Origin: an uncultured Rhodospirillales bacterium
GTDB taxonomy: Bacteria > Pseudomonadota > Alphaproteobacteria > Rhodospirillales > JAPHRK01
Length of the DNA: 64,000 nt
Direction: 5' to 3'
NCBI GenBank assembly: GCA_965368335.1
Contig: CBDUMN010000003.1
Coordinates: forward strand, 1,586-65,585
Shown here: in pieces, positions 12,201 to 37,946 of the stretch
Position numbering within the stretch: position 1 is the first letter of the stretch
How the letters are laid out: each line of letters opens with the position of its first letter
Position numbers and translations under genes: made by a program
The notes under the pieces: model-generated
What the model saw: the letters and a program-made list of their open reading frames with translations, nothing else
Told to the model about the DNA's origin: nothing
Databases searched by the model: none

Positions 12201-12213
12201 GGAGAAACAAGTC

Positions 12214-13752: not shown

Positions 13753-15826
13753 TAGGTGAAATCCGCTCCAGCTCCTGCATCGCCGTTCTGCTTTCAAGCA
13801 TCTTAAGCGTAGCGGCAATGGCTTTTTCATGGCCGCGAACGTATGGTGCGATACTCACGTCATCATGGATAATGTGATTGAACAGCCAACTGCAGAGCAT
13901 TCTGCGCATATCGGAAAGAACGGTTTGCGACGGCTCTGTATTCCAGGCCTTGACGAGCTGTAGCAATTCCTCACGCAATGCGTTATGGGTTTGTTTATGC
14001 TGTTCGATATCGGGAAACTCACAGGCTTCCATAATCGCTTCTTCCCGATCGAAATGATAGCCAGCGTAGGCTATTAGTTTTTCAATAATTTTATCGACGC
14101 CCTTATCGTCGGCCGTCATCTGACTAAACCGGTTGACCAGAGCGGCTAAGTGTTTGTGGTCGGCATCAATTTCCGGCACATCAATCAGCAACGAGTCGGT
14201 CCAGATCAGTGTCTCGAGGTTATCCACCGTTGGTATTTCGACCCAGAATGTGCTGCCGTCGCCAACCTCGCTATCGAAGCCAATTCGGCCCGCCATACGC
14301 TCAACCAGCATTTTGGAAACGGTCAATCCGATCCCCGTCCCCTTACGGGTCAACATGGGGTCGGCGCCCAGGCGATGGAACATATTGAAAACCGTATGCC
14401 TGTCTTTTTCAGCAATGCCGATCCCCGTATCGCAGACCGATATTCTGACAAACCCCTTGCGCCCCGATTCGACACGCACCTCAATGCTTCCATTATCTTT
14501 GTTATAGTTGACGGCATTGGATAGTAAATTGAGAAGAATTTGCTTAAGCCGCACCCGGTCAGTTCGCAGATAGGCGAGGTTATTTTTCGGTCTGTGCCGA
14601 ACGATTTTCAGGTTCCGTTCCTTAACAATCGGCGTAACCAACGCCACACAATCGGCGACCAGATGTTCGACCTCAACCTCATCGAGCGATAGAATAATCT
14701 TGTCCGCCTCGATTTTGGAAAGGTCCAAGACTTCGTTAACCAGGGACAGCAAGAGCTTGCCGCCTTCCATAATGTGATCAACGCTTTCCGCCTGCGATGG
14801 CGTCAAAGCCGTCTTCGGATCGTAAAGCAGCATTTCGGCAAATCCGAGAACGGCATTCAGTGGGGTCCGCAATTCATGACTCATGGAAGCAAGAAACTCA
14901 GACTTCGCCTGATTGGCCTGTTCGGCATCAATCAAAGCTCTCCGAAGATCTTCCTCCATATTTTTCATCGTTGTAACGTCAAGATGAATGCCGTTCATAA
15001 GAGCGGGCTTGCCATTACTATCCCGCTTAATCACCTTGCCACGCGCATTGACCCAAACCCAGCCTCCCGCCGCATGCGACTGTCGGTAGATGGCGTCGTA
15101 ATAATCCTTTTTTCCCTTAAAGTACTGCTTAACCTGGTTTTCAACATTAGGCAGGTCGTCGGGATGAATGAGATTTCGCCAGGTTTCAATGGTCGTCGGC
15201 TCCAACTCGGCTCGTGTTTTCCCGACAATCTCCGCCCAACGCTCATTAACCGCCAATACACCAGTCTGGATATTCCATTCCCAATAACCCGCGTTGGTTC
15301 CTTCTAGAATTTCCTTAGCCTTAGTCGCCAAATGAAGGTTGTCGATTTCCGCCTGCACCCTCGGAGCGAAACCCAGGAGAGTGTTCAGCACCTCGTCCAC
15401 ATCACCGATAACATCGTCATGAAGGACAACAAACGCACCAAGCGAGACGCCCCCTTCACCAAACAGAGGAACGGCGACATAGCCCTCCGCTTCCTGTTCT
15501 TCCAACAAATCGTTGGATGGAAAGCTTTTCTGGATATCCGTCGCCTGAGAAAACGGTTTCTGGCCAAAAACTTGCGCACAGGGGGACTGTGCGACGTTGT
15601 AGCTATAATTTTCGAGAAAATCAGTCCCAGACCAGAAAAAAAGAACCCTAACCCGGCTCGAGTCAGCGGGATCGATTTCGCTGATCAATACGCTTTTGAC
15701 ATTGAGTGCCTGGGCAAGCAATCGGCAAATTTCACGCAAAAAATCACGGCCGACCAGCACAGCGGCTTCGGCTGCGATCATCTTGATCTTGCCCTCCCCG
15801 TCGCTAGATAGCGACCCCTCAAACAT
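13730..15826 (-). CDS. cytoplasmic GAF-PAS sensor histidine kinase with C-terminal hemerythrin domain
   Basis: No TM segment. The PAS region is NAGYWEWNIQTGVLAVNERWAEIVG...IHPDD. H-box is SMSHELRTPLNAVLGF. ATPase boxes are NLLSNAVNYN, DTGIGI and GTGIGLTV. The C-terminal ~125 aa carry the hemerythrin His/Glu/Asp ligand pattern (DADHKHL...YHFDREE...HKQTHNAL...WLFNHIIHDD), spanning about nt 13835-14203. Confidence 0.85.
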   Translation of the reverse strand: MFEGSLSSDGEGKIKMIAAEAAVLVGRDFLREICRLLAQALNVKSVLISEIDPADSSRVRVLFFWSGTDFLENYSYNVAQSPCAQVFGQKPFSQATDIQKSFPSNDLLEEQEAEGYVAVPLFGEGGVSLGAFVVLHDDVIGDVDEVLNTLLGFAPRVQAEIDNLHLATKAKEILEGTNAGYWEWNIQTGVLAVNERWAEIVGKTRAELEPTTIETWRNLIHPDDLPNVENQVKQYFKGKKDYYDAIYRQSHAAGGWVWVNARGKVIKRDSNGKPALMNGIHLDVTTMKNMEEDLRRALIDAEQANQAKSEFLASMSHELRTPLNAVLGFAEMLLYDPKTALTPSQAESVDHIMEGGKLLLSLVNEVLDLSKIEADKIILSLDEVEVEHLVADCVALVTPIVKERNLKIVRHRPKNNLAYLRTDRVRLKQILLNLLSNAVNYNKDNGSIEVRVESGRKGFVRISVCDTGIGIAEKDRHTVFNMFHRLGADPMLTRKGTGIGLTVSKMLVERMAGRIGFDSEVGDGSTFWVEIPTVDNLETLIWTDSLLIDVPEIDADHKHLAALVNRFSQMTADDKGVDKIIEKLIAYAGYHFDREEAIMEACEFPDIEQHKQTHNALREELLQLVKAWNTEPSQTVLSDMRRMLCSWLFNHIIHDDVSIAPYVRGHEKAIAATLKMLESRTAMQELERISPTTGSSSS

Positions 15827-16013: not shown

Positions 16014-17024
16014 GTGAGCGCGCCTAAAAAAGTCATCGTCACCGGAGGGGCTGGGTTTATCGGCAGCCATCTCACCGAACGCCTAATCAATGACGGGCAC
16101 GCGGTTTCGGTGATCGATAATTTTTATATTGGCCGCGAGGAAAACATCGCACATCTGATGGAAACCGGCCGCCTCAACATTCACAAGGCCGATATCGCCG
16201 ATCTGGCAACCATTAAGCCGCTTTTTGAAGGTGTTGATTGGGTTTTTCACCTTGCCGCTATGGCCGATATCGTGCCCTCGATCCAAATGCCCCTGCCATA
16301 CCATAGGGCTAACGTCGATGGCACCATTGCCATTCTCGAAGCAGCCCGAACGGGGGGCGCTAAGCGCTTCGTCTACGCGGCCTCATCTTCCTGCTACGGC
16401 ATTCCAGATGAGTACCCGACCAAGGAAACGGCCGATATACGCCCCATGTACCCCTACGCATTGACCAAATACGTCGGTGAGGAATACGTGCGCCATTGGA
16501 ATCAAACCTATGGCCTGCCGACAGTTTGCCTAAGGCTGTTCAATGTTTATGGGCCACGCGCTCGGACCACAGGCACTTACGGGGCGGTTTTCGGCGTTTT
16601 TCTCGCTCAGAAACTAGCTGGCGAGCCTTTTACCGTCGTCGGAGACGGCAAGCAGACCCGTGACTTCACCTTTGTTACCGATGTTGCAGACGCCTTTGTC
16701 GCTGCCGCCCGGTCCAACCTCGACGGCGAGGTGATGAACGTCGGATCGGACAACACCTATTCGGTCAATCGCTTGGTTGAGCTGCTTGGCGGCGAAGTGA
16801 CCTATATCCCTAAACGCCCCGGCGAACCTGATTGCACCTACGCCGACACCTCACGGATCAAGGAAATGCTCGGCTGGAAGCCTCGGGTAACCTTCGAACA
16901 AGGGGTTTCCGTTATGCTAGAAAACATCGACCATTGGCGCACCGCGCCAGTTTGGACCGTCGATCAGATCGAAGAAGCAACAGCCGACTGGTTCAAATAC
17001 CTAAGCGATGGCGAGTCGTCCTAG
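16014..17024 (+). CDS. NAD-dependent sugar-nucleotide epimerase/dehydratase (extended SDR)
   Basis: GGAGFIGSH Rossmann motif and YALTK catalytic YxxxK. Length and pattern resemble UDP-hexose 4-epimerase or decarboxylase-type SDRs. Confidence 0.85.
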
Positions 17025-17059
17025 AAAAGGGCGAAACAAATGAGGAGAAGCCTCGCATT

Positions 17060-18616
17060 ATGACTGATAAGGACAATTCTGGCGGCAACCCACTGCTAAA
17101 CAAGCTCAAAACTCTCGAAGAGTTAGGCGTCATTTCCGATAAGGCGCGCAAAGACGGCAAGACCGTGGTGCTCGCACATGGCACATTTGACCTCTTGCAT
17201 ATCGGACATCTTCGGCATTTGCGGCTCGCCAAACGCGAAGGCGATATCCTGATCGTTACCATCACTGCCGACGCTCATGTCAATAAAGGGCCCGGTCGGC
17301 CGGTTTTCGCCGAGCAGATGCGCGCCGAAATGCTAGCCGCCATCGAATGCATCGATTATGTCGGCATCAACGACGGCCCCAAGGCGCTAGAAGTTATTCA
17401 GGCGGTGAAACCCAGCAAATACGTCAAGGGCTCCGACTACAAGAATGCCCAAGACGATGTGACGGGCGGCATCGTCGAAGAACGAGCCGCCGTTGAAGAA
17501 CATGGCGGTGAGTTGGTGTTTACCGACGAAATAACCTTCAGTTCCTCTTCTCTGATCAACCGCCACCTGGCAGTCTTCGATCCGACTCTGGACGAGTATC
17601 TGGAAGCCCAACGTTCAAAAGGTATTCTCGATCAACTCACCGAACTGATCGATAAGGTCAAGAACTACCGTATCCTGATGATTGGCGACGCCATCATTGA
17701 CGATTACGTTTATGTTTCCGCTCTCGGCAAGTCGCCGAAAGAACATATGATCGCCACTCTATTCGAAGACCGGGAGGTTTTTGCAGGCGGCGTTTTCGCA
17801 GCGGCAAACCATGTGGCCGATTTTTGCAAAGAGGTGGAAATCGTCACCACCTTGGGCGAAGGCTGCGAATACGAAAAAATGATCCGAGGCGCGCTACGGC
17901 CCAACGTGACCTTAAATGCTTTTTACCGGGAAAATGCGCCAACCACCCGCAAGACCCGCTTCATCGACCGCTCATATCTGCGCAAGATGTTCGAGGTCTA
18001 CGATATGGATGACACCCCGACAGACGTAACGCTTGAACGTGTCATCGACCGGATGATTTTACAGCGCGCCAGCGATTTCGACATGGTGATCGTTACCGAC
18101 TTCGGCCACGGTCTGATGACGCCCACCATGATCGCTTCACTGGAGCGCACCGCCAAATTCTTAGCCGTCAATACCCAGTCCAACAGCGCCAACCTGGGCT
18201 TCAACCTGATCACCAAGTATCCGCGAACCGACTATATCTGCATTGACGCACCCGAAGCCCGACTGGCTACCGGAGATCGACGCAGCGACATCGAAGACAT
18301 CGCCTCAAGAGCCCTGCCGGAACGTATCAGTTGCCCGAAACTGATCGTTACCCACGGCAAGAACGGCTGCATCGGCTACGAACACAAGTCTCAGGTGGCC
18401 CATGTTCCGGCCTTCACCAAAACAGTGGTCGATACGGTGGGCGCGGGCGACGCCTTTTTCGCCGTCACAGCCCCTCTGGCGGCAGCGGGCGGCAAGGTGG
18501 ATCAATTGGCCTTTATCGGTAATGCCGCCGGAGCAATCAAGGTGGGTATCGTCGGACACCGGAATTCGGTCGAAAAGATATCCGTGCTAAAGTTCCTCAC
18601 CACCCTGCTCAAGTAG
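17060..18616 (+). CDS. bifunctional nucleotidyltransferase (N-terminal) / PfkB-family sugar kinase (C-terminal), a domain-inverted HldE-like enzyme
   Basis: The N-terminal cytidylyltransferase-like HxGH motif (GTFDLLHIGHLRHL) resembles HldE domain II. The C-terminal PfkB/ribokinase signature is DTVGAGDAFFA. ATG 17060 is used because the 16832 ORF start lies inside the previous gene. Confidence 0.8.
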   Translation: MTDKDNSGGNPLLNKLKTLEELGVISDKARKDGKTVVLAHGTFDLLHIGHLRHLRLAKREGDILIVTITADAHVNKGPGRPVFAEQMRAEMLAAIECIDYVGINDGPKALEVIQAVKPSKYVKGSDYKNAQDDVTGGIVEERAAVEEHGGELVFTDEITFSSSSLINRHLAVFDPTLDEYLEAQRSKGILDQLTELIDKVKNYRILMIGDAIIDDYVYVSALGKSPKEHMIATLFEDREVFAGGVFAAANHVADFCKEVEIVTTLGEGCEYEKMIRGALRPNVTLNAFYRENAPTTRKTRFIDRSYLRKMFEVYDMDDTPTDVTLERVIDRMILQRASDFDMVIVTDFGHGLMTPTMIASLERTAKFLAVNTQSNSANLGFNLITKYPRTDYICIDAPEARLATGDRRSDIEDIASRALPERISCPKLIVTHGKNGCIGYEHKSQVAHVPAFTKTVVDTVGAGDAFFAVTAPLAAAGGKVDQLAFIGNAAGAIKVGIVGHRNSVEKISVLKFLTTLLK

Positions 18617-18626
18617 GAGGGGCTGA

Positions 18627-19232
18627 ATGACCAACCAAATCTTCAATCAATATCTCAAAACCCTGGCAGCCTGCCTAAGGGATTCCGAAGCCAGTACGCA
18701 AGATGGCGCACCCATGGAGATGGGAGACGCCATGGATTGGATCACCAACACAGCTAAAGCCGCCCATGAGCGGGGAAACAAGATGATGTTCGTCGGCAAC
18801 GGCGGGTCGTCGTCCATTTCCAGCCATCTTTCAGTGGATTTCGCCAAGAACGGCGGCATGCGGGCGATGACCGTTACCGATGCACCGATGCTCACTTGCC
18901 TGGGAAACGACCTGGGCTACGAGAATGTCTACGCCAAACCGGTCGAAATGTACGGCACGGCGGGCGACATGCTGGTCGCTATTTCCAGTTCCGGCGGCTC
19001 AGCCAATATTTTGAACGCCGTCGCCAAGGCGCGCGATATCGGCGCAAGCGTTCTGACTTTAAGCGGGTTCAAACCGGACAACCCCCTGCGCAGGTCCGGC
19101 GATGTGAACCTTTATGTCCCCTCTTACGAATACGGCTTCGTTGAAACAGCCCATACGGCCCTGCTCCACGCAGCGCTCGATCTAAGCATGGGCTGGACCG
19201 AGGAAGACGGCCTTTGGGAAAGAAAACAATGA
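18627..19232 (+). CDS. gmhA: SIS-domain phosphoheptose isomerase (GmhA-like)
   Basis: FVGNGGSSSISSHLSVDF and LVAISSSGGSANILNAV motifs. The ~200-aa size is typical of sedoheptulose-7-phosphate isomerase. Confidence 0.8.
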   Translation: MTNQIFNQYLKTLAACLRDSEASTQDGAPMEMGDAMDWITNTAKAAHERGNKMMFVGNGGSSSISSHLSVDFAKNGGMRAMTVTDAPMLTCLGNDLGYENVYAKPVEMYGTAGDMLVAISSSGGSANILNAVAKARDIGASVLTLSGFKPDNPLRRSGDVNLYVPSYEYGFVETAHTALLHAALDLSMGWTEEDGLWERKQ

Positions 19233-20233
19233 GCAATAAAAAAATCTGGAACGTCATGGTAACCGGCGGCGCCGGTTATGTTGGCTCCTCCCTGGTCCCC
19301 AAGCTTTTGGAAGAAGGTCACGGGGTCACGGTCCTCGATCTCTATCTCTATGGCGACGATATCTTTGAGGATCACCGCGACAACCCAAGACTACGTGAGG
19401 TTAAGGGCGACCTACGTGACATCGCAACCGTACGCAACGCCTTGAAGGGCTGCGATGCTGTCATTCATCTGGCCTGTATCTCAAACGATCCCTCCTACGA
19501 CCTCAATCCAGACCTTGGCAAATCGATCAACTACGACGCTTTTAGGCCGCTGGTTCGCGCCTCCAAAGAAGCAGGCGTTAAACGTTTTATCTATGCCTCA
19601 TCCTCATCGGTTTATGGCATCAAGGACGAAGCCCAGGTTACCGAAGACCTGCCGCTGGAGCCTTTGACCGACTACTCCAAGTTCAAAGCTCTCTGCGAAG
19701 AAGAGCTGGAGGAAGAACGCGAACCGGGTTTCGCCACGCTGGTTATCCGTCCTTCGACCGTCTGCGGCTACGCTCCCCGCCTGAGGCTCGACCTGACGGT
19801 CAATATCCTGACCAACCACGCCATCAACAAAGGCAAAATCACCGTATTCGGAGGCGCCCAGAAACGCCCCAACATTCATATCGACGATATGGTCGGCCTT
19901 TATCTTTTCGTGTTGCAGCAAGACGACGAGAAGATTGACGGCAAAATCTTCAATGCGGGATATGAAAACTTCACCGTCATGGAAATCGCCGAGATGGTGC
20001 GTGACGCCCTTGGGGGCGACATCGGCATTGATGTGACGCCCACCGACGACAACCGCTCCTATCATGTTTCATCCGACAAGATGAAAAAGGAACTGGGGTT
20101 CATGCCGCAGCATACGATTCTCGATGCGGTCAAGGAGCTGAAAGCAGCCTTTGAGGCAGGCAAGGTGCCGAACTCCATGGATGACCCTATCTATTTCAAC
20201 ATCAAGCTCATGCAGGACGTTGACCTGAAGTAA
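19229..20233 (+). CDS. NAD-dependent epimerase/dehydratase (extended SDR)
   Basis: TGGAGYVGS Rossmann motif and YSKFK YxxxK. ATG 19229 overlaps the gmhA-like stop (ATGA). The TTG at 19214 is less likely. Confidence 0.85.
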   Translation: MSNKKIWNVMVTGGAGYVGSSLVPKLLEEGHGVTVLDLYLYGDDIFEDHRDNPRLREVKGDLRDIATVRNALKGCDAVIHLACISNDPSYDLNPDLGKSINYDAFRPLVRASKEAGVKRFIYASSSSVYGIKDEAQVTEDLPLEPLTDYSKFKALCEEELEEEREPGFATLVIRPSTVCGYAPRLRLDLTVNILTNHAINKGKITVFGGAQKRPNIHIDDMVGLYLFVLQQDDEKIDGKIFNAGYENFTVMEIAEMVRDALGGDIGIDVTPTDDNRSYHVSSDKMKKELGFMPQHTILDAVKELKAAFEAGKVPNSMDDPIYFNIKLMQDVDLK

Positions 20234-20234
20234 C

Positions 20235-20852
20235 ATGCGGATTGGCATCGACTTCGACAACACCATCGCAAGCTACGACGCAGCTTTCCTCGCCGCGGCC
20301 CGAAACCAGGGCTTGATCGAAGAAAGCTTCACCGGAGGAAAGGCCGCGGTGCGCGACGCGATGCGAAGCCTCCAAGACGGTGAACGGAAATGGCAGACCC
20401 TTCAGGGCCGCGTCTATGGCGCTTTCATGGAACAGGCGGCCCTGATCCCCGGCGTGGCCGAGTTTCTGACAAAATGCAATAGGGCCCTGCTGGATGTTTT
20501 TATCGTCAGCCATAAGACCGAGTTCGGTCATTTCGACCCGGAGAAAGTCAACCTGCGCGACGCAGCCATGGCCTGGATGCACAAGCAGGGTTTCTTCGAC
20601 CCAGACAGGTTCAATCTTTCACCGCTCAATATTTACTTCGAGAGCACCCGCGCCGAGAAGTTGGCCCGCATCGGGGCGCTGGAACTCGATCTGTTTATCG
20701 ACGATCTACCGGAAGTGCTATCCGATCCAGACTTCCCAGACGGTCCTCAAAAGGTGCTCTACGATCCCGATGACATTGGCGCTGAACTACCATACGACAG
20801 GATCGCCCATTGGAACGTCTTAACCCAGGGAGTGTTCGATGGCGCCGCGTGA
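20235..20852 (+). CDS. HAD-superfamily hydrolase (putative sugar phosphatase, GmhB-analogous role inferred)
   Basis: N-terminal HAD motif I (IGIDFDNTIA) and a late acidic motif (LFIDDL). The role is inferred only from pathway context. Confidence 0.5.
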   Translation: MRIGIDFDNTIASYDAAFLAAARNQGLIEESFTGGKAAVRDAMRSLQDGERKWQTLQGRVYGAFMEQAALIPGVAEFLTKCNRALLDVFIVSHKTEFGHFDPEKVNLRDAAMAWMHKQGFFDPDRFNLSPLNIYFESTRAEKLARIGALELDLFIDDLPEVLSDPDFPDGPQKVLYDPDDIGAELPYDRIAHWNVLTQGVFDGAA

Positions 20853-21858
20853 GTATTCCCATCATACGGTTCGCGAGATCGGCGAAACATTAAGCGGCGA
20901 AGTCCTGCTCGATGTGGTTCACACGCGTCCCGGCGGCAACAACCGGATTTTTCAGCTCATCGGTGACAATCAGTCGTTTGCCTTAAAATTCTATCCAGCC
21001 CAGGACGAAGACCCTCGCGACCGACTGGGCAACGAATATGTCTTCCTCGATTTCCTTAAAAACTGCGGCATCCAACATGTGCCGGAGCCAATCATCCGCG
21101 ACGACACCAATTCCTGCGCCCTGTATAGCTGGGTTGAAGGCGAGGCTGTCGGCGAAGCGACGGATAAAGACGTTGAAGCGCTGGCTTGGTTTCTCATCGG
21201 TCTACAGCCTTTGAAACGTAAGCCGGAGGCCACACGGATTAACCCAGCATCCGCCGCCTGCCCGGCTCCCGATGACGCCTTCAAGCAACTGCACCAACGG
21301 CTTGAGTGCTTGAAAGAGGCTGGAAGCGAGCACCCTAGTCTCCATGAATTCCTCGAAAATGATTTCAAGCCCAAGGCTGAAGAGGTGACCGAACAAGCCC
21401 GGACGGCACTACAAGCCAGTGGAATCAACCCGGAGCGGTCGATGGCAGCAGAAAAACTCGCCATCAGCCCGTCCGATTTCGGCTTTCATAACGCTCTTCG
21501 CAATGAAAACGGCGGTTTGAGTTTTGTCGACTTCGAGTATGCCGGGTGGGATGATCCGGTAAAAGCCGTTGCGGACGCCATGCTGCATCCCGGCAGTGGA
21601 ATGAGCGAGGCACAGGCCGAACATTTCCGGGCTAAGATGTTTCCGGTTTTTGCAATCGATCCCAAGTTTGAAGAACGATTTAACGCACTCTACCCGGTCT
21701 ATGCCCTGATCTGGTGCCTCATCATTCTCAATGAATTTTTACCCGAACGCTGGACCCGTCGCCGCCTCGCCGGACAAGAGGCCGATCTGGCAACGATCCA
21801 GGACAGACAACTTGAGAAGGCCGCAACTTTGCTGACAAGGATTGCCCATGCCGCTTAA
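20839..21858 (+). CDS. APH/choline-kinase-family phosphotransferase
   Basis: Brenner/APH motif region SPSDFGFHNALRNENGGLSFVDFEYAGWDDPVKAVAD. It overlaps the HAD gene by 14 nt. Confidence 0.65.
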   Translation: MAPREYSHHTVREIGETLSGEVLLDVVHTRPGGNNRIFQLIGDNQSFALKFYPAQDEDPRDRLGNEYVFLDFLKNCGIQHVPEPIIRDDTNSCALYSWVEGEAVGEATDKDVEALAWFLIGLQPLKRKPEATRINPASAACPAPDDAFKQLHQRLECLKEAGSEHPSLHEFLENDFKPKAEEVTEQARTALQASGINPERSMAAEKLAISPSDFGFHNALRNENGGLSFVDFEYAGWDDPVKAVADAMLHPGSGMSEAQAEHFRAKMFPVFAIDPKFEERFNALYPVYALIWCLIILNEFLPERWTRRRLAGQEADLATIQDRQLEKAATLLTRIAHAA

Positions 21859-22693
21859 CCCGCCTTCGGGGGCCGAGCCCTTAGCCATGCCGCTCGACGA
21901 ACGATCCAAACATCTTCGCCGCTTAGCGCTTGGCTCCATGCTCTCGGCTGGACGCGGCCACTTGGGTCCAGCCATGAGTCTGATCGAAATTCTGCGCGTC
22001 CTCTATGACGACATCCTCCGCTATAAACCAGACAATCCTAAATGGGCCGGGCGAGACCGCTGCATTCTTTCCAAAGGCCATGGCTGCTTGGCGCTCTATG
22101 CCATTCTGGCCGACAAAGGTTTCTTCCCGGAAAGCGAATTGGCCAAGTTTTGCGCTTTCGATGGGTTGCTGGGCGGCCATCCGGAAGTGCTCGCCCCCGG
22201 TGTCGAGGCCAGCACAGGCGCACTAGGACACGGACTTTCCATCGGCGTCGGCATGGCGTTGGCCAATCGGATGAAAAAGCGTGACGGCAAGGTGGTCGTC
22301 GTGATGGGCGATGGCGAAATCAACGAAGGGTCCTGCTGGGAAGCAGCCATGGCGGCAGCCAAGCACGGGCTCGGCAATCTGACCGCCATCATCGACCATA
22401 ACAAAATCCAGTCCTACGGTCCGGTCAATGGGGTCCAGCCTCTCGAACCCCTGGCCGATAAATGGAGGGCCTTCGGCTTCGCCGTCGAGGAAGTGAATGG
22501 TCACGATGTGGCGGCCCTGCAAGAAACTTTAAAACGGCTACCCTTCACTTCGGACCGTCCCAGTGCGCTGATTTGTCATACGGTCAAAGGCAAGGGCATT
22601 CCACCCGCCGAAAACAATCCCACCTGGCACCACAAAAACAAGCTAAAGGATGAGGAACTCGCCCCCATCCGCGAAGCGCTTGGAGAGGGCTGA
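21842..22693 (+). CDS. transketolase, N-terminal (ThDP-binding) subunit
   Basis: GHLGPAMSLIEILRVLY, KGHGCLALYAILA and MGDGEINEGSCWEAAMAAAKHGLGNL motifs of split transketolases. A possible later start lies at 21887. Confidence 0.9.
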   Translation: MPMPLNPPSGAEPLAMPLDERSKHLRRLALGSMLSAGRGHLGPAMSLIEILRVLYDDILRYKPDNPKWAGRDRCILSKGHGCLALYAILADKGFFPESELAKFCAFDGLLGGHPEVLAPGVEASTGALGHGLSIGVGMALANRMKKRDGKVVVVMGDGEINEGSCWEAAMAAAKHGLGNLTAIIDHNKIQSYGPVNGVQPLEPLADKWRAFGFAVEEVNGHDVAALQETLKRLPFTSDRPSALICHTVKGKGIPPAENNPTWHHKNKLKDEELAPIREALGEG

Positions 22694-22697
22694 GACA

Positions 22698-23624
22698 ATG
22701 CGGAAAACAGCGCTCAACATGGTTCACGAACTGGCCCGCCAGGACGAGCGGGTGGTCTATATCGGCTCGGACCCCGGCCCCGGAACGCTTGACGAAATGC
22801 GCGAGGAATTCCCCGACCGTTTCTTCATCGAAGGAATTGCCGAAGCCAACGTGATCGGCATGGCTGCCGGGCTGGCCATGGAAGGTTATGTTCCCTACGT
22901 CAATACCATCGCCACCTTCCTGACCCGGCGTTGTTACGAACAACTGGCTATCGACCTTTGCCTGCATAAGCTGCCCGTCCGGCTGATCGGCAACGGCGGT
23001 GGGCTGGTCTATGCTCCCTTGGGCCCGACCCATCAGGCCATTGAAGACATAGCGATCACCCGCGCTCTGCCGAACATGACAGTCATCGCCCCGGCCGATG
23101 CCGACGAAATGCGCCGCATGGTTCCCCAGACTCTCGATGTGGAAGGGCCGGTTTATATCCGCCTCGCCAAAGGACATGACGAGATCGTCACCCAGGAAGA
23201 CCATGGCAACACCCTGGGCAAGGCGATTATGCACAGAGAACCGGGCGACGCGCTGCTCGTTACCACGGGTATTATGCTCCAGCGGGGCTTGAAAGCGGCC
23301 GAACTGCTGGCCGAAGATAGTATCGAGTGTGGCCTGCTCCATTGCCACACCATCAAACCCTTGGATGTCGAAACCCTGGCCCATGCCGCCCGTCGCGCCA
23401 AGGTCGTCATCACGGCCGAGGAACATCTAGTCTCCGGCGGCCTGGGCGGCGCGGTTCTTGAGGCTCTTTCCGACGCCATGCCGGGCGCCATGCCACCGAT
23501 TATCCGCAAGGGCATTCCCGATAAATTCACCCATCACTATGGCTCCCAGGATCTCCTGCTGGAACACTACGGCCTGCAAGCCCCCGGATTGGCCCAAACC
23601 GTCAAAGACGCGCTGTCGAAATAG
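22698..23624 (+). CDS. transketolase, C-terminal (pyrimidine-binding) subunit
   Basis: FIEGIAEANVIGMAAGLAMEGYVPYVNTIATFL and GPTHQAIEDIAITRALPNMTVIAPAD. ATG 22698 lies 2 nt after the upstream stop. Confidence 0.9.
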   Translation: MRKTALNMVHELARQDERVVYIGSDPGPGTLDEMREEFPDRFFIEGIAEANVIGMAAGLAMEGYVPYVNTIATFLTRRCYEQLAIDLCLHKLPVRLIGNGGGLVYAPLGPTHQAIEDIAITRALPNMTVIAPADADEMRRMVPQTLDVEGPVYIRLAKGHDEIVTQEDHGNTLGKAIMHREPGDALLVTTGIMLQRGLKAAELLAEDSIECGLLHCHTIKPLDVETLAHAARRAKVVITAEEHLVSGGLGGAVLEALSDAMPGAMPPIIRKGIPDKFTHHYGSQDLLLEHYGLQAPGLAQTVKDALSK

Positions 23625-23635
23625 GAACCTGCCCA

Positions 23636-24745
23636 ATGGTCGATAACGTTCGATATTCATACCTGCCCCAACAGTTCGCCGAAATCGACGACCTGTGGGA
23701 AGAGTTGAAAGCCTTCGTCCCCACCGGAGATTTCACCTTGGGCAAGCCGCTCACCGAATTCGAACAGCGTTTCGCCAAGCTGATCGGCTCTAAACATGCC
23801 ATTGGGGTCAATTCAGGCACCGACGCCATCAAGTTGGGGCTGAAAGCGCTCGGCGTCGGCTTCGGCGACGAAGTGATCACCACCGCAAATACCTTCATCG
23901 CCACCGTCGGCGCTATCGCCGAAATCGGCGCAACGCCGGTATTCGTCGATTGCGACGACACCTTTTGCATGAATGTCGGTCAGGTGGAAAGCACCGTCAC
24001 CGAGAAAACCAAGGCCATCGTGCCGGTCCATTTCACCGGCTATATGACCGACATGCGCAAACTCATGCCCATTGCCGAAAAGCACGGCCTTCCCATCGTC
24101 GAAGACGCCTGTCAGGGCATCCTCGCCGCCATCGAGGGGAAAAACGCCGGCACCTGGGGCCATACCGGAGCCTTTTCCCTCCATCCGTTGAAGAACCTCA
24201 ACGTCTGGTCTGACGGCGGCATTATCATCACCGACGACGACGAGCTGGACCGCAAACTACGGCTATTGCGCAATCACGGCATGAGAAACCGGGATGAAAT
24301 CGAACTCCTGGGCTATAACTCCAGGCTCGATACCATCCAGGCGGTGGTCGGCAACTGGCTGATCCCCCAAACCGAAGACATCGCCGCCAAGCGTATCGCC
24401 AATGCGGCCTATTATGACGATGCCTTCGGCGCGCTTTCGCAAATCCGTATCCCGCCGCGTCCCACCGATATGCGGCTGGTCTATCACCTCTATATCGTTT
24501 TCGCCGAAGACCGGGACGGCCTGTTGGAGCATTGCCTCAAAAAAGATATCGAAGCCAAAATCCACTATCCCATTCCACTCTATCAGCAGGATGGTCTGAA
24601 GCATCTGGGCTACACCCCGGGAGACTTCCCGGTCACTGATCGCCACACTCAGGAAATCATCACCTTCCCGGTCGATCAGCATATTTCGAAAGAAGAGATG
24701 GACTACGTGATCGCCACGGTTAAAGAGTACTATGGAGGCTCGTGA
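23636..24745 (+). CDS. DegT/DnrJ/EryC1/StrS-family sugar aminotransferase
   Basis: The family pattern GVNSGTDAIKLGLKALGVGFGDEVITTANTFIATVGAI, the SLHPLKNL lysine region, and LRNHG are present. Confidence 0.9.
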   Translation: MVDNVRYSYLPQQFAEIDDLWEELKAFVPTGDFTLGKPLTEFEQRFAKLIGSKHAIGVNSGTDAIKLGLKALGVGFGDEVITTANTFIATVGAIAEIGATPVFVDCDDTFCMNVGQVESTVTEKTKAIVPVHFTGYMTDMRKLMPIAEKHGLPIVEDACQGILAAIEGKNAGTWGHTGAFSLHPLKNLNVWSDGGIIITDDDELDRKLRLLRNHGMRNRDEIELLGYNSRLDTIQAVVGNWLIPQTEDIAAKRIANAAYYDDAFGALSQIRIPPRPTDMRLVYHLYIVFAEDRDGLLEHCLKKDIEAKIHYPIPLYQQDGLKHLGYTPGDFPVTDRHTQEIITFPVDQHISKEEMDYVIATVKEYYGGS

Positions 24746-25853
24746 GGTGAGCAGCTTGAAAATCCCCTACGTCAATTTCAAGGCTCAGTATGAAGCCGAG
24801 AAAGACGATCTCGCCCGGATAACCGACGAGGTTTTCGCTTCCGGCTGGCTGATCGGCGGCGAGCAGGTAGAAAGGCTGGAGGCTGAGCTTGCCACCTATT
24901 GCGGGGTCGAGCATACCGTGGCGCTCAACTCCGGCACCGACGCATTGATCCTCGGCATGAAGGCCCTGGAAATTGGTCCCGGCGACGAGGTCATTACGCC
25001 GCCCAACTCTTTCGTCGCCTCGACCGCCGCCATCATCGCCGTCGGCGCAACGCCGGTTTTTGCCGATGTAGGCGACGGCATCAACATCGACCCAACCAAA
25101 ATTGAAGACGCCATGACGGCCAAAACCAAGGCGATCATGCCGGTCCACCTTTCGGGCCGCATCGCGGACATGGACGCCATCAACGCCATCGCTAAGCAGC
25201 ATGGCCTTTACATCATCGAAGACGCCGCCCAGTCGGTGGGATCAACCTACAAAGGCAAAAAAAGCGGCAGTCTCGGGACCCTCGGATGTTTTTCCGCCCA
25301 TCCCTTAAAAAACCTCAATGCGGCAGGCGACGCCGGTTTCCTGACCACCAACAACGCAGGCATCGCGGAACGTATCAAGCTCCTGCGCAACCATGGCCTT
25401 AAAGACCGCAATACGGTGGTCGAATGGGGCACGGTTTCGCGGCTCGACAGCCTCCAGGCGGCCATCCTGCGCTATCGGCTTGGCAACATTGAGGCCACAA
25501 TTCGAGCCCGCCGAAACAATGCCCAACGCTACCGTGAGAAATTAGGCGGCAAGGGTTTTGAGTTGCCGCTCGGCAAGGAGCATGAGTTCAATACCTTCCA
25601 TACCTTTATCATCCATGCCGAACGGCGCGATGAACTGCAGGCCTACCTGCTGGAGCAAGGCATTGAAACGGCGATCCACTACCCGATCCCCATTCACCTG
25701 CAACCGGCGGCCCGAAGCCTCCGCTATAAAGAGGGCGATTTCCCAGTCTGTGAAGCCCAGGCGAAACGTATCCTCTCCTTGCCCATCCACCAGTATCTCA
25801 GCTACCAAGAAATCGATTTGGTGGCTGAATTAGTAAACCGTTTTTACAAATAG
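24732..25853 (+). CDS. DegT/DnrJ/EryC1/StrS-family sugar aminotransferase (second copy)
   Basis: LNSGTDALILGMKALEIGPGDEVITPPNSFVASTAAI, SAHPLKNL and LRNHG. It overlaps the previous gene by 14 nt. Confidence 0.9.
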   Translation: MEAREVSSLKIPYVNFKAQYEAEKDDLARITDEVFASGWLIGGEQVERLEAELATYCGVEHTVALNSGTDALILGMKALEIGPGDEVITPPNSFVASTAAIIAVGATPVFADVGDGINIDPTKIEDAMTAKTKAIMPVHLSGRIADMDAINAIAKQHGLYIIEDAAQSVGSTYKGKKSGSLGTLGCFSAHPLKNLNAAGDAGFLTTNNAGIAERIKLLRNHGLKDRNTVVEWGTVSRLDSLQAAILRYRLGNIEATIRARRNNAQRYREKLGGKGFELPLGKEHEFNTFHTFIIHAERRDELQAYLLEQGIETAIHYPIPIHLQPAARSLRYKEGDFPVCEAQAKRILSLPIHQYLSYQEIDLVAELVNRFYK

Positions 25854-25861
25854 GCGAAACC

Positions 25862-26704
25862 ATGGCGAAAAGAGTTCTTTTGTTTGGCTACACCGGCAAA
25901 TTGGGCCGAGCGCTGCATAAAGCCCTGGCAGACGACTTCGAGGTTACCGGCAAAAACACTTCAGATTTCGACGCCATGGATTTTGCCAGCGCGGATAAGC
26001 TGATCGACGAGATTCAGCCGGAAATTATCATCAATCCAGTCGCTTATCTGGGTATCGACGCCTGTGAGCAAAACCCATACCCTGCCTCTGTCATCAATAC
26101 GCTGTTTCCGCAACATTTGGCGCGGCGTTGCTTGGAAACGGAAGCATCTCTCGTACAATTCTCCACCGAGTCGGTTTTTTCGGGAAAGTTGAAACGGCCA
26201 ATTAGCGAAGAGGATACGCCCGACCCTGCCAATAACTATGGTTTCACCAAGTACATGTCGGAAGTGACCGTCCGGGACACCCTGGAAACCCATTATATTT
26301 TCCGCCTGCCCGTTCTGTTTGGCGAAAACCCACGTCGCAATCAGTTTGTCGAAAAGATGCTCGACATGGGCAAAGAGCGTGGAAGCTTGCGCATTGCCGA
26401 CGATATTATTACCGCACCCACCTATGCCAAGGATGTTGCCGAACGCATCGCGATCATGCTCAAGGGAAAGCCCCCCTTCGGACTCTACCACCTCGCCAAC
26501 GCAGGTCAGGCCACACTTTACGAGATGATAAACGAAACCGTCGCCAATCTGGGCCTCGACATTGAGATCAAGCGGGCGTCGCTCAATGACTTCCCGAGCA
26601 TTGGCAACAAAAACACCATTACGCCCTTAAAAACCATCAAGACCACCCCTCTGCGTCCTTGGCGGGAAGCCTTGGCTGAGTATTGTGCAGAACACGAAAA
26701 ATGA
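25862..26704 (+). CDS. RmlD-like (dTDP-4-dehydrorhamnose reductase family) sugar-nucleotide reductase
   Basis: 280 aa with FGYTGKLG nucleotide-binding start and YGFTK YxxxK, giving an RmlD substrate-binding-domain-like layout. Confidence 0.7.
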   Translation: MAKRVLLFGYTGKLGRALHKALADDFEVTGKNTSDFDAMDFASADKLIDEIQPEIIINPVAYLGIDACEQNPYPASVINTLFPQHLARRCLETEASLVQFSTESVFSGKLKRPISEEDTPDPANNYGFTKYMSEVTVRDTLETHYIFRLPVLFGENPRRNQFVEKMLDMGKERGSLRIADDIITAPTYAKDVAERIAIMLKGKPPFGLYHLANAGQATLYEMINETVANLGLDIEIKRASLNDFPSIGNKNTITPLKTIKTTPLRPWREALAEYCAEHEK

Positions 26705-26862
26705 ATATGAGAATCATTCACAAAACAATCGCTTTTTAAGCTTTTCTTGAGGGTTTTTGTGCCCATATAGAAGGCTGCGGTTTTTATCGGCACAAGCACA
26801 GCGCCGACAAGGAATAGGGCCTGGACAGAATATCCCGGCCATACGTGACCAGGAGTAACAGA

Positions 26863-28230
26863 ATGTCTCACATCACGACGGAACAGGTCCGCGACGCTCT
26901 CAAATCAATCACCGATCCGGATAGCGGGGCCGATATCGTCAGCCGCGGTATGATTTCGGAAATCGCCATTCACGGTCGCAAAGTCAGCTTTGCAATTATG
27001 GTCAATGGTGAGGGCGGCGAACGGATGGAACCAATCCGCAAGGCTGCCGAAGACATTGTTTCAAAAATTTCAGGTGTCGCTCAGGCCCATGTGGCCCTGA
27101 CCGCCGAACGCGCACCAACCATGCCCAACGCGGACGCGCGTAAACTCGACAAATACAAAATGGACGGCAACAAGATGCTCTGGCATATGGAGCGCGTCCA
27201 AGCCTGGAAAAACGGTGAGCGCATTGCTCCGCTACACATCGACGTCGGACTTTCAAAGGGTTGCAACATCCGCTGCCAATACTGTTATGGCGTGACCCAG
27301 GGCAATTTTTTCCGCAAAGGCTCAGAGCGCGTTTTCCCACGCGACGCACTGCTCCAGTACATGCAGGATTGCGGCGACCTCGGCGTGCGCTCTATCGCAT
27401 TGATCGGCGAAGCGGAACCCACGCTAAACCCGGCCGTTTACGAGGCCATCGCCACCGGCAAGAAAGCTGGGGTCGACATGTCGATGGGCACCAACGGCGT
27501 TTTGTTCGACACAACCAAGGTCGGTGAAGAAGCCCTGGAACATCTTACTTGGCTGCGCTTTAATATTTCCGCCGGGTCCGACTACGCCTACCGGCGCGTC
27601 CATGCTTCCAAAGAATTCAATACGGTGGTCGAAAAAATCCGCTTCACCGTCGAGACCAAGCGGAAACTCAACCTCGACACCACCGTCGGCCTACAGATGG
27701 TCCTCACCCCTCAAAATGTCGATCAGGCCGTTCCACTCGCCCAACTCGGCGCCGAGTTGGAAGTGGACTATCTGGTCATCAAGCAGTGCTCGGACACTCA
27801 GGAAGGTGACATCGGGGTCTATGACCAACTCGAGGTTTATCACGACTTCAGCGAAACCCTGCACCAAGCCGAAACCTTTTCCAATGACCACTACAACGTG
27901 ATCGTCAAATGGGACAAGATCACCAACGAAGGGCATCGAGAATACGACAACTGTCTCGGCACGCCTTTCCTGCTCTATTCCTCCGGCGACGGCAAGCTCT
28001 ACCCCTGCGGTCAGTGGTTTGGTTACCGCGAAGAAGAATTCCGCTTGGCCGACTTAACCCAGACGACCTTTAAGGAAGCCATCGAAAGCGATGCCTACTG
28101 GGACATCATCAAAAAGCAGGCCTGTCATGTGGACGTGCATAAAGAGTGCTACTCCAACTGCCGCACCCACTCGATCAACGATTTCCTGTGGAACTTCAGC
28201 CACCCACCGGCACATGTGAATTTCGTTTAA
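26863..28230 (+). CDS. DUF59/MIP18-like domain fused to a radical SAM enzyme
   Basis: AGGAG lies 7 nt upstream of ATG 26863. The N-terminal ~85 aa resemble the Mrp/ApbC N-terminal DUF59 (VRDALKSITDPDSGADIVSRGMISEIAIHGRKVSFAI). The radical SAM CxxxCxxC motif is GCNIRCQYCYG (Cys codons at 27262, 27274 and 27283). Confidence 0.75.
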   Translation: MSHITTEQVRDALKSITDPDSGADIVSRGMISEIAIHGRKVSFAIMVNGEGGERMEPIRKAAEDIVSKISGVAQAHVALTAERAPTMPNADARKLDKYKMDGNKMLWHMERVQAWKNGERIAPLHIDVGLSKGCNIRCQYCYGVTQGNFFRKGSERVFPRDALLQYMQDCGDLGVRSIALIGEAEPTLNPAVYEAIATGKKAGVDMSMGTNGVLFDTTKVGEEALEHLTWLRFNISAGSDYAYRRVHASKEFNTVVEKIRFTVETKRKLNLDTTVGLQMVLTPQNVDQAVPLAQLGAELEVDYLVIKQCSDTQEGDIGVYDQLEVYHDFSETLHQAETFSNDHYNVIVKWDKITNEGHREYDNCLGTPFLLYSSGDGKLYPCGQWFGYREEEFRLADLTQTTFKEAIESDAYWDIIKKQACHVDVHKECYSNCRTHSINDFLWNFSHPPAHVNFV

Positions 28231-31498: not shown

Positions 31499-32472
31499 GA
31501 ACGGTTACCTTTTTCCAACCAGTCTGAGGCTGTTCGGATAATCGCTTCAAGGTCTGAGTTCGGGTGTCTAAAATTCAGCACGCGTTTGACCTTGTCTGGC
31601 TCGGCAATGAGACAAGCGGGGTCGCCAGGGCGGCGGGGCTTCACAACCGTTCTGACATTTTTACCCGTCACCTTTTCGACCGCGGCAATGACTTCCTTCA
31701 CGGAATGGCCAATGCCGGTGCCTAGATTGTAAGGAGAAAATTCCGGTGTATCTCGAAAACTTTCTAAAGCCGTGACATGGACGGTCGCCAGATCGCTTAC
31801 ATGCACATAATCGCGCACACAACTACCATCAGGCGTCGGATAATCATCACCATAAATTTCCACAACCGTGCCATTGATGGCCGCTTCGAGGATACGGGGG
31901 ATCAGGTGCGGCTCGGGATCATGAGCCTCCCCGACGTCTAAATCCGGGTCGGCCCCAGCAGCATTGAAATAGCGAAGCACAGCGGCTGAAATTCCCTCCG
32001 CCTTGACCATATCCTCAATGATCCGCTCACATGTCACCTTACTCATGCCATAAGGTGAAATTGGGTTGAGCGGCAGGCCCTCATCAATTGAGGTTGCGTT
32101 TTGGTCGCCAAAAATAGTGCAACTACTGGAAAAAACGATCTTCCGAACCCCAGTTTGCTGCATGGCTCGGGCCAATGAGATCATCCCCCCCACATTATTG
32201 TTATAGTAGAGCAAAGGCTGCTCGTTGGACTCTCCTACATAGGCAAATGAGGCGAAATGCATGACGCCTTCGACGCCATATTCGGTCATCACAGCCGCCA
32301 AACGCCCCTCATCGAGGATATCGCCTTCCTCTAACGGCCCCCAACGAACCGCCCAAGCATTTCCTCGGCACAGATTGTCATAGGTCACGGGCACATAACC
32401 GGCCGATGCAAGCGCTTTACAAGCATGGCTACCTATGTAGCCCGCGCCCCCGGTTACCAGGACCGACTTCAT
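31495..32472 (-). CDS. galE: UDP-glucose/UDP-hexose 4-epimerase (GalE family)
   Basis: VLVTGGAGYIGSHACKAL start, YGMSK YxxxK, and GalE-like motifs throughout (DYPTPDGSCVRDYVHVSDLA). Confidence 0.9.
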   Translation of the reverse strand: MKSVLVTGGAGYIGSHACKALASAGYVPVTYDNLCRGNAWAVRWGPLEEGDILDEGRLAAVMTEYGVEGVMHFASFAYVGESNEQPLLYYNNNVGGMISLARAMQQTGVRKIVFSSSCTIFGDQNATSIDEGLPLNPISPYGMSKVTCERIIEDMVKAEGISAAVLRYFNAAGADPDLDVGEAHDPEPHLIPRILEAAINGTVVEIYGDDYPTPDGSCVRDYVHVSDLATVHVTALESFRDTPEFSPYNLGTGIGHSVKEVIAAVEKVTGKNVRTVVKPRRPGDPACLIAEPDKVKRVLNFRHPNSDLEAIIRTASDWLEKGNRS

Positions 32473-37905: not shown

Positions 37906-37946
37906 CTGAAATTTCCATTCTAGAGTTCAGAGAAACCGTTCTGATT

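Follow-up and report, generated by a model that had tools for sequence, protein, structure and literature searches.

A widespread gene cassette that may make a higher-carbon amino sugar, found in a flagellar island of an uncultured Rhodospirillales bacterium

Introduction

Nucleotide-heptose pathways are known from lipopolysaccharide (LPS), capsules and a few antibiotics. In the pathway to ADP-L-glycero-beta-D-manno-heptose (GmhA, HldE, GmhB, HldD), a ketose phosphate is converted to an aldose phosphate, then to a 1-phosphate and finally to a nucleoside diphosphate (NDP) sugar. Here, we analyze a block of eleven plus-strand genes (16014-26704) in a stretch of 64,000 nucleotides, hereafter the window, from an uncultured Rhodospirillales bacterium (GCA_965368335.1, contig CBDUMN010000003.1). 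An earlier note, made from the letters alone, had read this block as a self-contained NDP-heptose-like pathway with its own split transketolase and two aminotransferases. The block encodes, in order, a first short-chain dehydrogenase/reductase (SDR1), a nucleotidyltransferase-kinase fusion, an SIS-domain isomerase, a second short-chain dehydrogenase/reductase (SDR2), a phosphatase of the HAD superfamily, an APH-type kinase, the PP and Pyr/C subunits of a split transketolase, two DegT aminotransferases (DegT1 and DegT2) and an RmlD-like reductase. Our preferred reading, to which we give slightly less than an even chance, is that we are dealing with a copy of an uncharacterized nucleotide-sugar cassette, widespread and horizontally mobile, that would carry out the five steps set out in the Discussion.

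With the ADP-heptose pathway, the cassette shares the logic of the route, a GmhA-like SIS protein, HldE-like domains and a phosphatase. It differs in the reversed order of its fusion, in missing the curated cut-offs, in having Asp for Glu65 and Glu for Gln172 in the SIS protein, in a capped HAD phosphatase that is unrelated to GmhB and belongs to another co-inheritance module, and in additional steps for a thiamine diphosphate (ThDP) enzyme, aminotransferases and a kinase. The lincomycin GDP-octose pathway (LmbR, LmbN, LmbP, LmbK, LmbO) likewise joins a dedicated carbon-carbon bond enzyme, a transaldolase transferring three carbons upstream on sugar phosphates, to an isomerase, a kinase, a phosphatase and a nucleotidyltransferase, with amination later; its enzymes are not homologous one-for-one, and the evidence from the cassette argues against an upstream role of the ThDP enzyme. 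In yersiniose and avilamycin biosynthesis, the ThDP enzymes YerE and the E1-like pair AviB1/AviB2 add the C2 unit of pyruvate to an NDP-keto-sugar. Such two-carbon branching, likened here by the function of these enzymes, matches the E1-type sister cassettes described below and the role that we propose for the transketolase, although the acceptors of YerE and AviB are 6-deoxy or 3,6-dideoxy hexoses.

Campylobacter jejuni makes its GDP-heptose with a GHMP kinase and, as an enzyme of its own, a guanylyltransferase. The modification of this GDP-heptose, by a C4-dehydrogenase (the documented function of Cj1427), epimerases and C4-reductases (PMC10680097), resembles the cassette in C4 oxidation, tailoring, reduction and an RmlD-like reductase; the C. 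jejuni pathway has no ThDP enzyme and the window block no cupin epimerase. In septacidin and hygromycin B biosynthesis, C4 oxidation of a heptose is followed by transamination to a heptosamine (PMC9978623); there, the setting is actinomycete secondary metabolism, tailoring follows attachment to the nucleoside scaffold, and a single aminotransferase and no two-carbon transfer are described. Finally, the split transketolase of Carboxydothermus hydrogenoformans (ChTK) is biochemically active (PMC7661550). The cassette transketolase resembles it in having two subunits (200-227 bits) with the cofactor site and catalytic His intact, but its family lacks His461, Asp469 and Arg520, and its genes are part of an operon for sugar tailoring and not of pentose-phosphate metabolism. 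In E. coli transketolase, mutations at S385, D469 and R520 shift acceptor specificity from phosphorylated aldehydes (PMC5073344). Taken by sequence, then, the cassette resembles a nucleotide-heptose pathway with tailoring, yet its proteins appear to fall outside GmhA, HldE, GmhB and the canonical transketolases.

Results

To assign families, we performed Pfam and NCBIfam profile searches of the window proteins. These and the listing of open reading frames (ORFs) bore out the layout given in the earlier note: eleven tightly packed genes, abutting or overlapping with spacings of -17 to +36 nt, of the families it had named, including three short-chain dehydrogenases/reductases, two DegT aminotransferases, an extra APH-type kinase and a split transketolase. 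For a survey of loci, we scanned species-representative genomes and then searched the loci with the window proteins, which yielded about 50 loci with a clear relative of the cassette (numbered with an L below). These belong to Rhodospirillales, Bradyrhizobium, Rickettsiales, Thermodesulfobacteriota, Elusimicrobia, Omnitrophota, Nitrospinota, Nitrospirae, Planctomycetes, Verrucomicrobia, Rokubacteria, Firmicutes, Campylobacterota and several archaeal groups. Because the same gene set recurs, mostly in the same order, in dozens of loci from unrelated phyla, the block is a conserved cassette and not a chance grouping. Database searches gave more than 6,000 homologues for each of three proteins, namely the fusion, the HAD protein and the APH-type kinase, and their listed source names are only generic or "hypothetical." The best 120 homologues of the fusion protein all share its architecture and are 57-92% identical to it, mostly from alphaproteobacteria; one 518-aa database protein is 100% identical, and the nearest named relatives are from Ferrovibrio (74%) and Magnetospirillum (68%). 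A search of the published literature for the cassette or its parts found no description of the gene set.

The genes of the cassette are distributed as modules. Module A, the core, comprises SDR1, the fusion, the SIS protein and SDR2. Module B comprises the HAD phosphatase, the APH-type kinase and both transketolase subunits; 17 of the 19 loci with the HAD gene also have the kinase gene, and nearly all of these 17 carry the transketolase. Module C consists of DegT1 and DegT2, which are adjacent wherever found, and the accessory module D of a radical SAM enzyme like the one encoded just downstream of the block, at times with an RmlD-like gene.

We compared the core proteins with the enzymes of the heptose pathway. 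GmhA was the best-scoring family for the SIS protein (TIGR00441 gmhA, 89.9 bits, E = 1.7e-25, short of the curated equivalog cut-off of 209.45), and nearly all of its PDB matches were phosphoheptose isomerases (top 80.7 bits). Aligned to E. coli GmhA, the cassette orthologs have an invariant His61 and SSSGxSxN phosphate loop; Glu65 is replaced by Asp and Gln172 by Glu in nearly all of them, and the position of His180 is mostly His, with Met, Gln or Asn in some. In the fusion, Pfam placed PF01467 at residues 39-130 and PF00294 at residues 341-506, and NCBIfam placed the nucleotidyltransferase at 26-168 and the kinase at 197-500, the reverse of the order in HldE. The kinase half scored 110 bits against rfaE_dom_I and 48 against ribokinase, and the nucleotidyltransferase half 108 bits against rfaE_dom_II and 39 against TagD. 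Both rfaE scores are below the curated cut-offs, as are the 153 bits of the whole fusion against the full-length HldE model NF008454 (cut-off 521). For each half, the HldE domains nonetheless outscored other PfkB or cytidylyltransferase families, and the nearest PDB chains are 5x9q and 4e84 (heptose-7-phosphate kinase). The profile searches that the earlier note had named as a check thus place the SIS protein and the kinase/nucleotidyltransferase nearest to the GmhA and HldE families, though below equivalog level; of the GmhA/HldE/GmhB core that it had described, these two parts are supported by homology, and the HAD protein, which is not GmhB-like, co-occurs with the APH-type kinase and transketolase rather than with the core.

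We also compared the two short-chain dehydrogenases/reductases of the core with solved structures. The top PDB match of SDR2, which is 55-75% identical across nearly all cassette loci, was 6vo6/6vo8, a "putative sugar-nucleotide epimerase/dehydratase" (137.5 bits; runner-up 100.8) that we take to be Cj1427, the GDP-heptose C4-dehydrogenase. SDR1 matched Pfam Epimerase (212 bits) and, in the PDB, UDP-GlcNAc/Glc 4-epimerases and UDP-glucuronate decarboxylases. Identity to SDR1 is 55-73% at most bacterial loci and 63-66% at some loci of Firmicutes and archaea. Among enzymes of this superfamily, an Asp-Glu pair after the catalytic Ser/Thr marks the 4,6-dehydratases. The pair (TDE motif) is absent from both proteins, SDR1 having SSSSCYG and SDR2 SSSSVYG, so deoxygenation via 4,6-dehydration is unsupported. 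An NDP-heptose or close analogue would be the most economical reading of the core, and a heptose-type nucleotide sugar, or a close analogue, is a plausible product of the cassette.

Next, we examined the transketolase. The PP subunit matched Transketolase_N (178 bits) and, best in the PDB, the N-chain of the C. hydrogenoformans split transketolase (6yak, 227 bits); the top match of the Pyr/C subunit was 6yaj (200 bits), from the same enzyme. Aligned to 6yak and human transketolase, the PP subunit still has counterparts of His26, His66, His100 and His261 as well as the GDG...N metal motif. The Pyr/C subunit keeps the equivalents of Arg358, Glu411 and His473, the last two invariant across cassette orthologs, and carries Gly for His461, Leu for Asp469 and Lys for Arg520. 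The canonical residues at these three positions occur in none of 19 aligned cassette orthologs from many phyla, whereas the C. hydrogenoformans enzyme retains all three. In transketolases, His461 and Arg520 contact the phosphate of the substrate, and hydroxyl configuration is recognized through Asp469. Cofactor-binding and catalytic residues are therefore present and those for the sugar phosphate and stereospecificity are lost; because of this combination, the cassette transketolase is probably active, on another kind of substrate.

The slot between SDR2 and DegT1 is not always filled by this enzyme. In 11 loci, it holds a pyruvate-dehydrogenase-type E1 alpha/beta pair, which replaces the block of HAD, APH-type kinase and transketolase genes at the same position. 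The flanking genes of these loci are 57-77% identical to those of the window, and the SIS gene is kept in 5 of the 11. The clearest case is a plasmid of Azospirillum oryzae KACC 14407 (L083, NZ_CP054615), where the order is SDR1 (67% identical to the window protein), fusion (57%), SIS (55%), SDR2 (69%), E1 alpha, E1 beta, DegT1 (77%), DegT2 (59%), hypothetical, radical SAM and NUDIX, the E1 pair lying at 212576-214625. The unit that an E1 enzyme transfers is hydroxyethyl or acetyl; its product is a 1-deoxy ketol, which a ketose/aldose isomerase cannot use. The transketolase also occurs without the SIS protein (L003, L015, L025, L043), and the SIS protein without the transketolase (L021, L031). 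Given the lost substrate residues, the replacement of the block by an E1 pair and the independent occurrence of SIS protein and transketolase, the ThDP enzyme is more likely a tailoring enzyme, a two-carbon transferase acting on an oxidized sugar, than a supplier of sedoheptulose-7-phosphate.

This bears directly on the model in which the transketolase acts upstream, the dedicated supply of sedoheptulose-7-phosphate that the earlier note had assigned to it. In its wider form, the enzyme would make sedoheptulose-7-phosphate or a longer ketose (e.g., octulose-8-phosphate) for the isomerase, kinase, HAD phosphatase and nucleotidyltransferase, and the resulting C7 or C8 sugar would then be tailored. 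All of the enzyme classes needed are in one operon, the residues of the PP domain for a 1-hydroxy ketol donor are intact, and the loss of the phosphate-binding residues could suit a non-phosphorylated aldose acceptor, the ketose then being phosphorylated by the APH-type kinase. The lincomycin pathway, with its transaldolase ahead of isomerase, kinase, phosphatase and nucleotidyltransferase, would be a precedent, and the nearest relative is a biochemically active split transketolase (PMC7661550). The substrate pocket, however, has lost its canonical residues family-wide, and in syntenic sister cassettes that bear both SIS and fusion genes the transketolase is replaced by an E1 pair unable to form a 1-hydroxy-2-ketose. 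Neither the SIS protein nor the transketolase requires the other's presence, and sedoheptulose-7-phosphate is a central metabolite for which a dedicated supply is unneeded. We thus regard an upstream transketolase as unlikely, and we return to a two-carbon transferase on an oxidized sugar as the preferred role.

The HAD protein had been taken for the GmhB step. It matched no Pfam or NCBIfam model, and its family profile gave only marginal matches to PDB sequences (E ~0.6). Its motifs D6xD8xT10, S92, K142 and D156-D157 are invariant in 33 homologues, and its AlphaFold2 (AF2) model (pLDDT 94) had only HAD hydrolases as top Foldseek matches in the PDB, many with probability 1.00. On these motifs and the predicted fold, we assign it to the HAD-superfamily phosphatases. 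The model has a helical cap and is nearest to 5'(3')-deoxyribonucleotidase-type folds, which sets the protein outside the cap-less, histidinol-phosphatase-like subfamily of GmhB; no entry labelled GmhB or heptose-bisphosphate phosphatase was among the top 50 Foldseek matches. Many loci with the fusion and SIS genes have no HAD gene, which tracks the APH-type kinase and transketolase instead. The GmhB assignment is therefore reduced to analogy, although the protein may remove the distal phosphate in this organism. The HAD family has more than 6,400 homologues, and among the 120 listed every source name is "hypothetical protein." The APH-type kinase (Pfam APH, 42 bits; AF2 pLDDT 92) has invariant motifs D213/H217/N218 and D231-F-E and matched homoserine kinase II, LicA choline kinase, APH(9), ethanolamine kinase and NahK in Foldseek.

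Both aminotransferases belong to the DegT/DnrJ/EryC1 family, with scores above gathering level and with Lys as the catalytic residue, where dehydratase members have His. DegT1 (PF01041, 341 bits; catalytic Lys in SLHPLKN) is 54-81% identical in 12 loci, each time beside DegT2 (PF01041, 366 bits; catalytic Lys in SAHPLKN). The best NCBIfam model for DegT1 was PseC. Against models of nonulosonic-acid enzymes, the short-chain dehydrogenases/reductases and aminotransferases of the cassette all fell short: LegB 162 bits (cut-off 475), LegC 171-177 (cut-off 420) and PseC 224 for DegT1 and 259 for DegT2 (cut-off 423). Two aminations are plausible because both proteins keep the catalytic lysine. Of the amino- or diamino-deoxy sugar suggested earlier, the amino part is thus upheld as plausible, and the deoxy part loses its footing with the missing dehydratase motif. 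The RmlD-like reductase (RmlD_sub_bind, 202 bits; TIGR01214, 186 bits, cut-off 224) accompanies the cassette in only two other loci (L003 and L025). Homologues of the downstream radical SAM enzyme (28-46% identity) lie inside the cassette in 16 loci, often beside the transketolase genes; because of this co-occurrence, the unit probably extends beyond 26704 to the end of the radical SAM gene at 28230. No convincing plus-strand terminator was found inside the block; the promoter/terminator scan as such gave fewer matches than shuffled sequence.

Discussion

We propose the following pathway, in which the first step follows from homology, the third from active-site changes and gene replacement, and the fifth from context, the second and fourth being inferred. 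First, the GmhA-like isomerase and HldE-like fusion would convert sedoheptulose-7-phosphate to NDP-D-glycero-D-manno-heptose or a close analogue, with the distal phosphate removed by the in-cluster HAD phosphatase or a housekeeping GmhB. Second, the Cj1427-like SDR2 and GalE-like SDR1 would oxidize and/or epimerize the NDP-sugar to give a carbonyl. Third, the split transketolase would move a two-carbon ketol onto the oxidized sugar, giving an extended or branched nine-carbon sugar with a second keto group; the APH-type kinase and HAD phosphatase may act on the primary hydroxyl introduced in this step or provide a donor that is not phosphorylated, e.g., hydroxypyruvate. In the sister cassettes, the E1 alpha/beta pair would act likewise with pyruvate. 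We speculate that the kinase and phosphatase accompany only the transketolase version because the transferred unit ends in CH2OH there and in CH3 when it comes from E1. Fourth, the two DegT aminotransferases would turn the keto groups into amines, and the RmlD-like reductase and radical SAM enzyme would complete the tailoring. That the two DegT genes travel together fits this scheme, since a ketol adduct brings a new keto group. Fifth, a transferase of the island would put the product on flagellin, beside a separately made legionaminic-acid-type sugar. In its most specific form, this would be a NeuB-independent route to a nine-carbon diamino sugar, in which an NDP-heptose is oxidized, lengthened or branched by two carbons by the ThDP enzyme and transaminated at both keto groups. 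That particular combination we think rather improbable.

Several points weigh against this reading. The curated equivalog cut-offs for GmhA, HldE and transketolase were all missed, so the sugar could be other than a heptose. The identification of 6vo6 as Cj1427, the GDP-heptose C4-dehydrogenase, is an assumption on our part. Transketolases normally require an aldehyde acceptor, addition to a 4-keto group would be unusual for them, and no enzyme of the block is known to make a sugar aldehyde. We know of no transketolase-type enzyme that adds a C2 unit to an NDP-keto-sugar. Arg358 is kept in the Pyr/C subunit, so that one phosphate contact may persist. The fold neighbors of the APH-type kinase do not discriminate between substrates, and the roles given above to kinase and phosphatase in the two-carbon step are guesses. 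Finally, in relatives the cassette is mostly found in non-flagellar, polysaccharide-type glycan loci.

This last point concerns the acceptor. Flagellin is a plausible target in this organism on the basis of the gene neighborhood. Upstream of the block lie flgE, flgI, flgK and a gene for a PAS-histidine kinase-hemerythrin protein, with an ORF lacking a Pfam match that we take from its position to be flgL. Downstream are radical SAM enzymes, GalE, methyltransferases, a GT1 and a B12-radical SAM enzyme. The island encodes five candidate protein glycosyltransferases: a tandem pair of Maf paralogues, two TPR-GT41 proteins and a TPR-GT61 protein. The TPR-GT61 architecture resembles that of the Caulobacter flagellin glycosyltransferase FlmG, and its adjacency makes this protein a candidate transferase for the cassette product.

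The same chemistry could instead serve LPS, a capsule or a glycoprotein other than flagellin. Cassettes of relatives adjoin GT2, GT4, YfhO and WecA-like genes typical of polysaccharide loci, with flagellar genes nearby only in L034 and L002, and the cassette differs in G+C content from the rest of the island. In the window, by contrast, the cassette sits between flgK/flgL and the TPR-GT61 transferase, two Maf genes and the flagellin gene share the same 50-kb island, and no genes for polysaccharide export, a polymerase or an initiating transferase were found among the scanned ORFs. A non-flagellin acceptor in this organism is accordingly doubtful in our view; the flagellin target named in the earlier note keeps its plausibility here and loses its generality, as the cassette is not specifically flagellar elsewhere.

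We also weighed the possibility that the cassette serves the nonulosonic-acid pathway of the island by making an unusual precursor or side-chain donor for a legionaminic- or pseudaminic-type sugar. NeuB and CMP-transferase genes are found 9-12 kb downstream, homologues of one or both adjoin the cassette in four loci (L026, L047, L051, L052), and plasmid pDCAR1 of Solidesulfovibrio carbinolicus has cassette genes interspersed with pseB, pseC, pseF, a second cytidylyltransferase gene and a short gene of the NeuB family. Like the animal sialic-acid route, the cassette has both a kinase and a phosphatase. Some 45 of the 50 loci, though, have no NeuB homologue within 10 kb, the presence of a nucleotidyltransferase in the fusion implies activation of the sugar by the cassette itself, and unrelated sugar pathways are commonly juxtaposed in glycan loci. 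The window moreover has its own LegB, LegC and acetyltransferase genes, and because the LegC/LegB-like pair is distinct from the DegT and short-chain dehydrogenase/reductase genes of the cassette, the island appears from its predicted proteins to encode a legionaminic-acid-type pathway of its own, with the cassette aminotransferases outside it. We consider an accessory role in nonulosonic-acid synthesis very unlikely. We rejected a phosphonate pathway (no phosphoenolpyruvate mutase, and a ThDP enzyme of the wrong family), a GDP-GlcN branch of the legionaminic pathway (wrong nucleotidyltransferase family, and a cassette that occurs without NeuB) and a LicA/LicC-like CDP-amino-alcohol pathway (a nucleotidyltransferase always fused to the PfkB kinase, and an optional APH-type kinase).

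On the preferred reading, a nucleotide-sugar cassette with a two-carbon transferase, the cassette may make a new higher-carbon amino sugar. The nine-carbon diamino sugar of the NeuB-independent route would be a new class of such sugars, attached to flagellin in this organism and present on other surface glycans in many bacterial and archaeal phyla, and the ThDP enzyme would be a natural transketolase re-tooled at positions 385/469/520, those that engineers mutate for acceptor specificity. We found no known pathway combining a domain-swapped HldE-like enzyme, a putative transketolase-derived two-carbon transferase interchangeable with E1 and two aminotransferases. Environmental genomes contain the cassette very often; knowledge of its product would put names to thousands of genes and probably bring a new surface sugar to light.

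Additional features of the window and of related loci

The coordinates of the cassette and of other features of the window are given in Table 1. The start of the transketolase Pyr/C subunit is most likely at 22698, as in its orthologs.

Table 1. Cassette genes and other features of the window, with the basis of assignment
Feature	Position	Strand	Basis
ORF taken as flgL	12088-13752		Position; no Pfam match
PAS-HisKA-HATPase sensor kinase with hemerythrin	13730-15826	-
SDR1, Epimerase-type; putative GalE/UXS-like NAD-dependent epimerase or oxidoreductase	16014-17024	+	Pfam
CTP_transf_like + PfkB fusion, HldE-like, swapped domain order	17060-18616	+	Pfam, NCBIfam
GmhA-like SIS sugar-phosphate isomerase	18627-19232	+	NCBIfam, PDB matches
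SDR2, Epimerase-type; putative nucleotide-sugar oxidoreductase	19214-20233 (start alternatively 19229)	+	Pfam, PDB match
HAD-superfamily phosphatase, unannotated family	20235-20852	+	Motifs, AF2 model, Foldseek
APH/choline-kinase-fold small-molecule kinase	20839-21858	+	Pfam, AF2 model, Foldseek
Transketolase-like N-terminal (PP, ThDP-binding) subunit	21842-22693	+	Pfam Transketolase_N
Transketolase-like Pyr + C subunit	22698-23624 (ORF could start 22650)	+	Transket_pyr + Transketolase_C
DegT aminotransferase 1 (DegT1)	23636-24745	+	PF01041
DegT aminotransferase 2 (DegT2)	24732-25853	+	PF01041
RmlD-like nucleotide-sugar 4-ketoreductase, accessory	25862-26704	+	RmlD_sub_bind
DUF59 (FeS_assembly_P)-radical SAM fusion, probable member of the same unit	26845-28230	+	Pfam
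TPR + GT61 glycosyltransferase	28259-30040	+	Pfam Glyco_transf_61, TPR
ORF without Pfam match	32469-33692	-
Methyltransferase	33711-34367
ORF without Pfam match	34422-35639	-
NeuB fusion + PseF-like CMP-transferase	35662-38675	-
Methyltransferase	40130-41368
B12-binding radical SAM enzyme + PhyH-like dioxygenase	41439-44072	-
Methyltransferase	44069-45841
NeuD/PglD-type acetyltransferase	46014-46694	-	212 bits
ORF without Pfam match	47249-48766	-
ORF without Pfam match	49086-50276	+
ORF without Pfam match	52479-53552	+
Maf pair + two TPR-GT41 proteins	53564-57515, 50358-52280, 57556-59490	-	Family searches
Flagellin gene	60394-61311	-
LegC + LegB-like dehydratase	61452-63651	-	LegC 432 bits (above cut-off 420), LegB-like 446 bits (cut-off 475)

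The G+C content is 0.54-0.59 over the cassette (16-28 kb), 0.47-0.50 at 28-62 kb and 0.60 in the first 2 kb; the island looks mosaic, with the cassette of other origin than the remainder. The sensor kinase between the hook-associated genes and the operon (698 aa, hemerythrin at its C-terminus) may be an oxygen- or iron-responsive regulator. The 747-aa NeuB protein has CBS domains at its N-terminus and, at its C-terminus, a xylose-isomerase-like TIM barrel (AP_endonuc_2). A hydrolysing 2-epimerase of the LegG/NeuC type was not seen in the window. The B12-binding radical SAM enzyme, the PhyH-like dioxygenase and the methyltransferases of the island suggest heavy further modification of its sugars. 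The five ORFs without a Pfam match encode 357-505 aa, and the two of these that were searched against NCBIfam had no match. The radical SAM enzyme just downstream of the block carries its DUF59/FeS_assembly_P domain at residues 13-83; its homologues (~355-375 aa) are without this domain, and the fusion may be specific to this lineage.

Some related loci have features of their own. The terminal NUDIX hydrolase of the E1-type cassette in A. oryzae (L083, 24751-25326) could free the sugar or sugar phosphate from its nucleotide carrier, and a carbamoyltransferase, an SGNH hydrolase and several radical SAM genes lie near that cassette. The pDCAR1 locus (L084, NZ_CP026539) has APH-type kinase, HAD, fusion, SIS and radical SAM genes and two different transketolase pairs, whose identity to the window N subunit is 59% and 46%; L030 likewise has two transketolase pairs. 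An unnamed conserved protein of ~320 aa, absent from the window, is encoded just upstream of the fusion gene in eight loci (L028, L030, L032, L034, L036, L037, L038, L084), where it is 58-68% identical among them and goes with a divergent, radical-SAM-rich form of the cassette.

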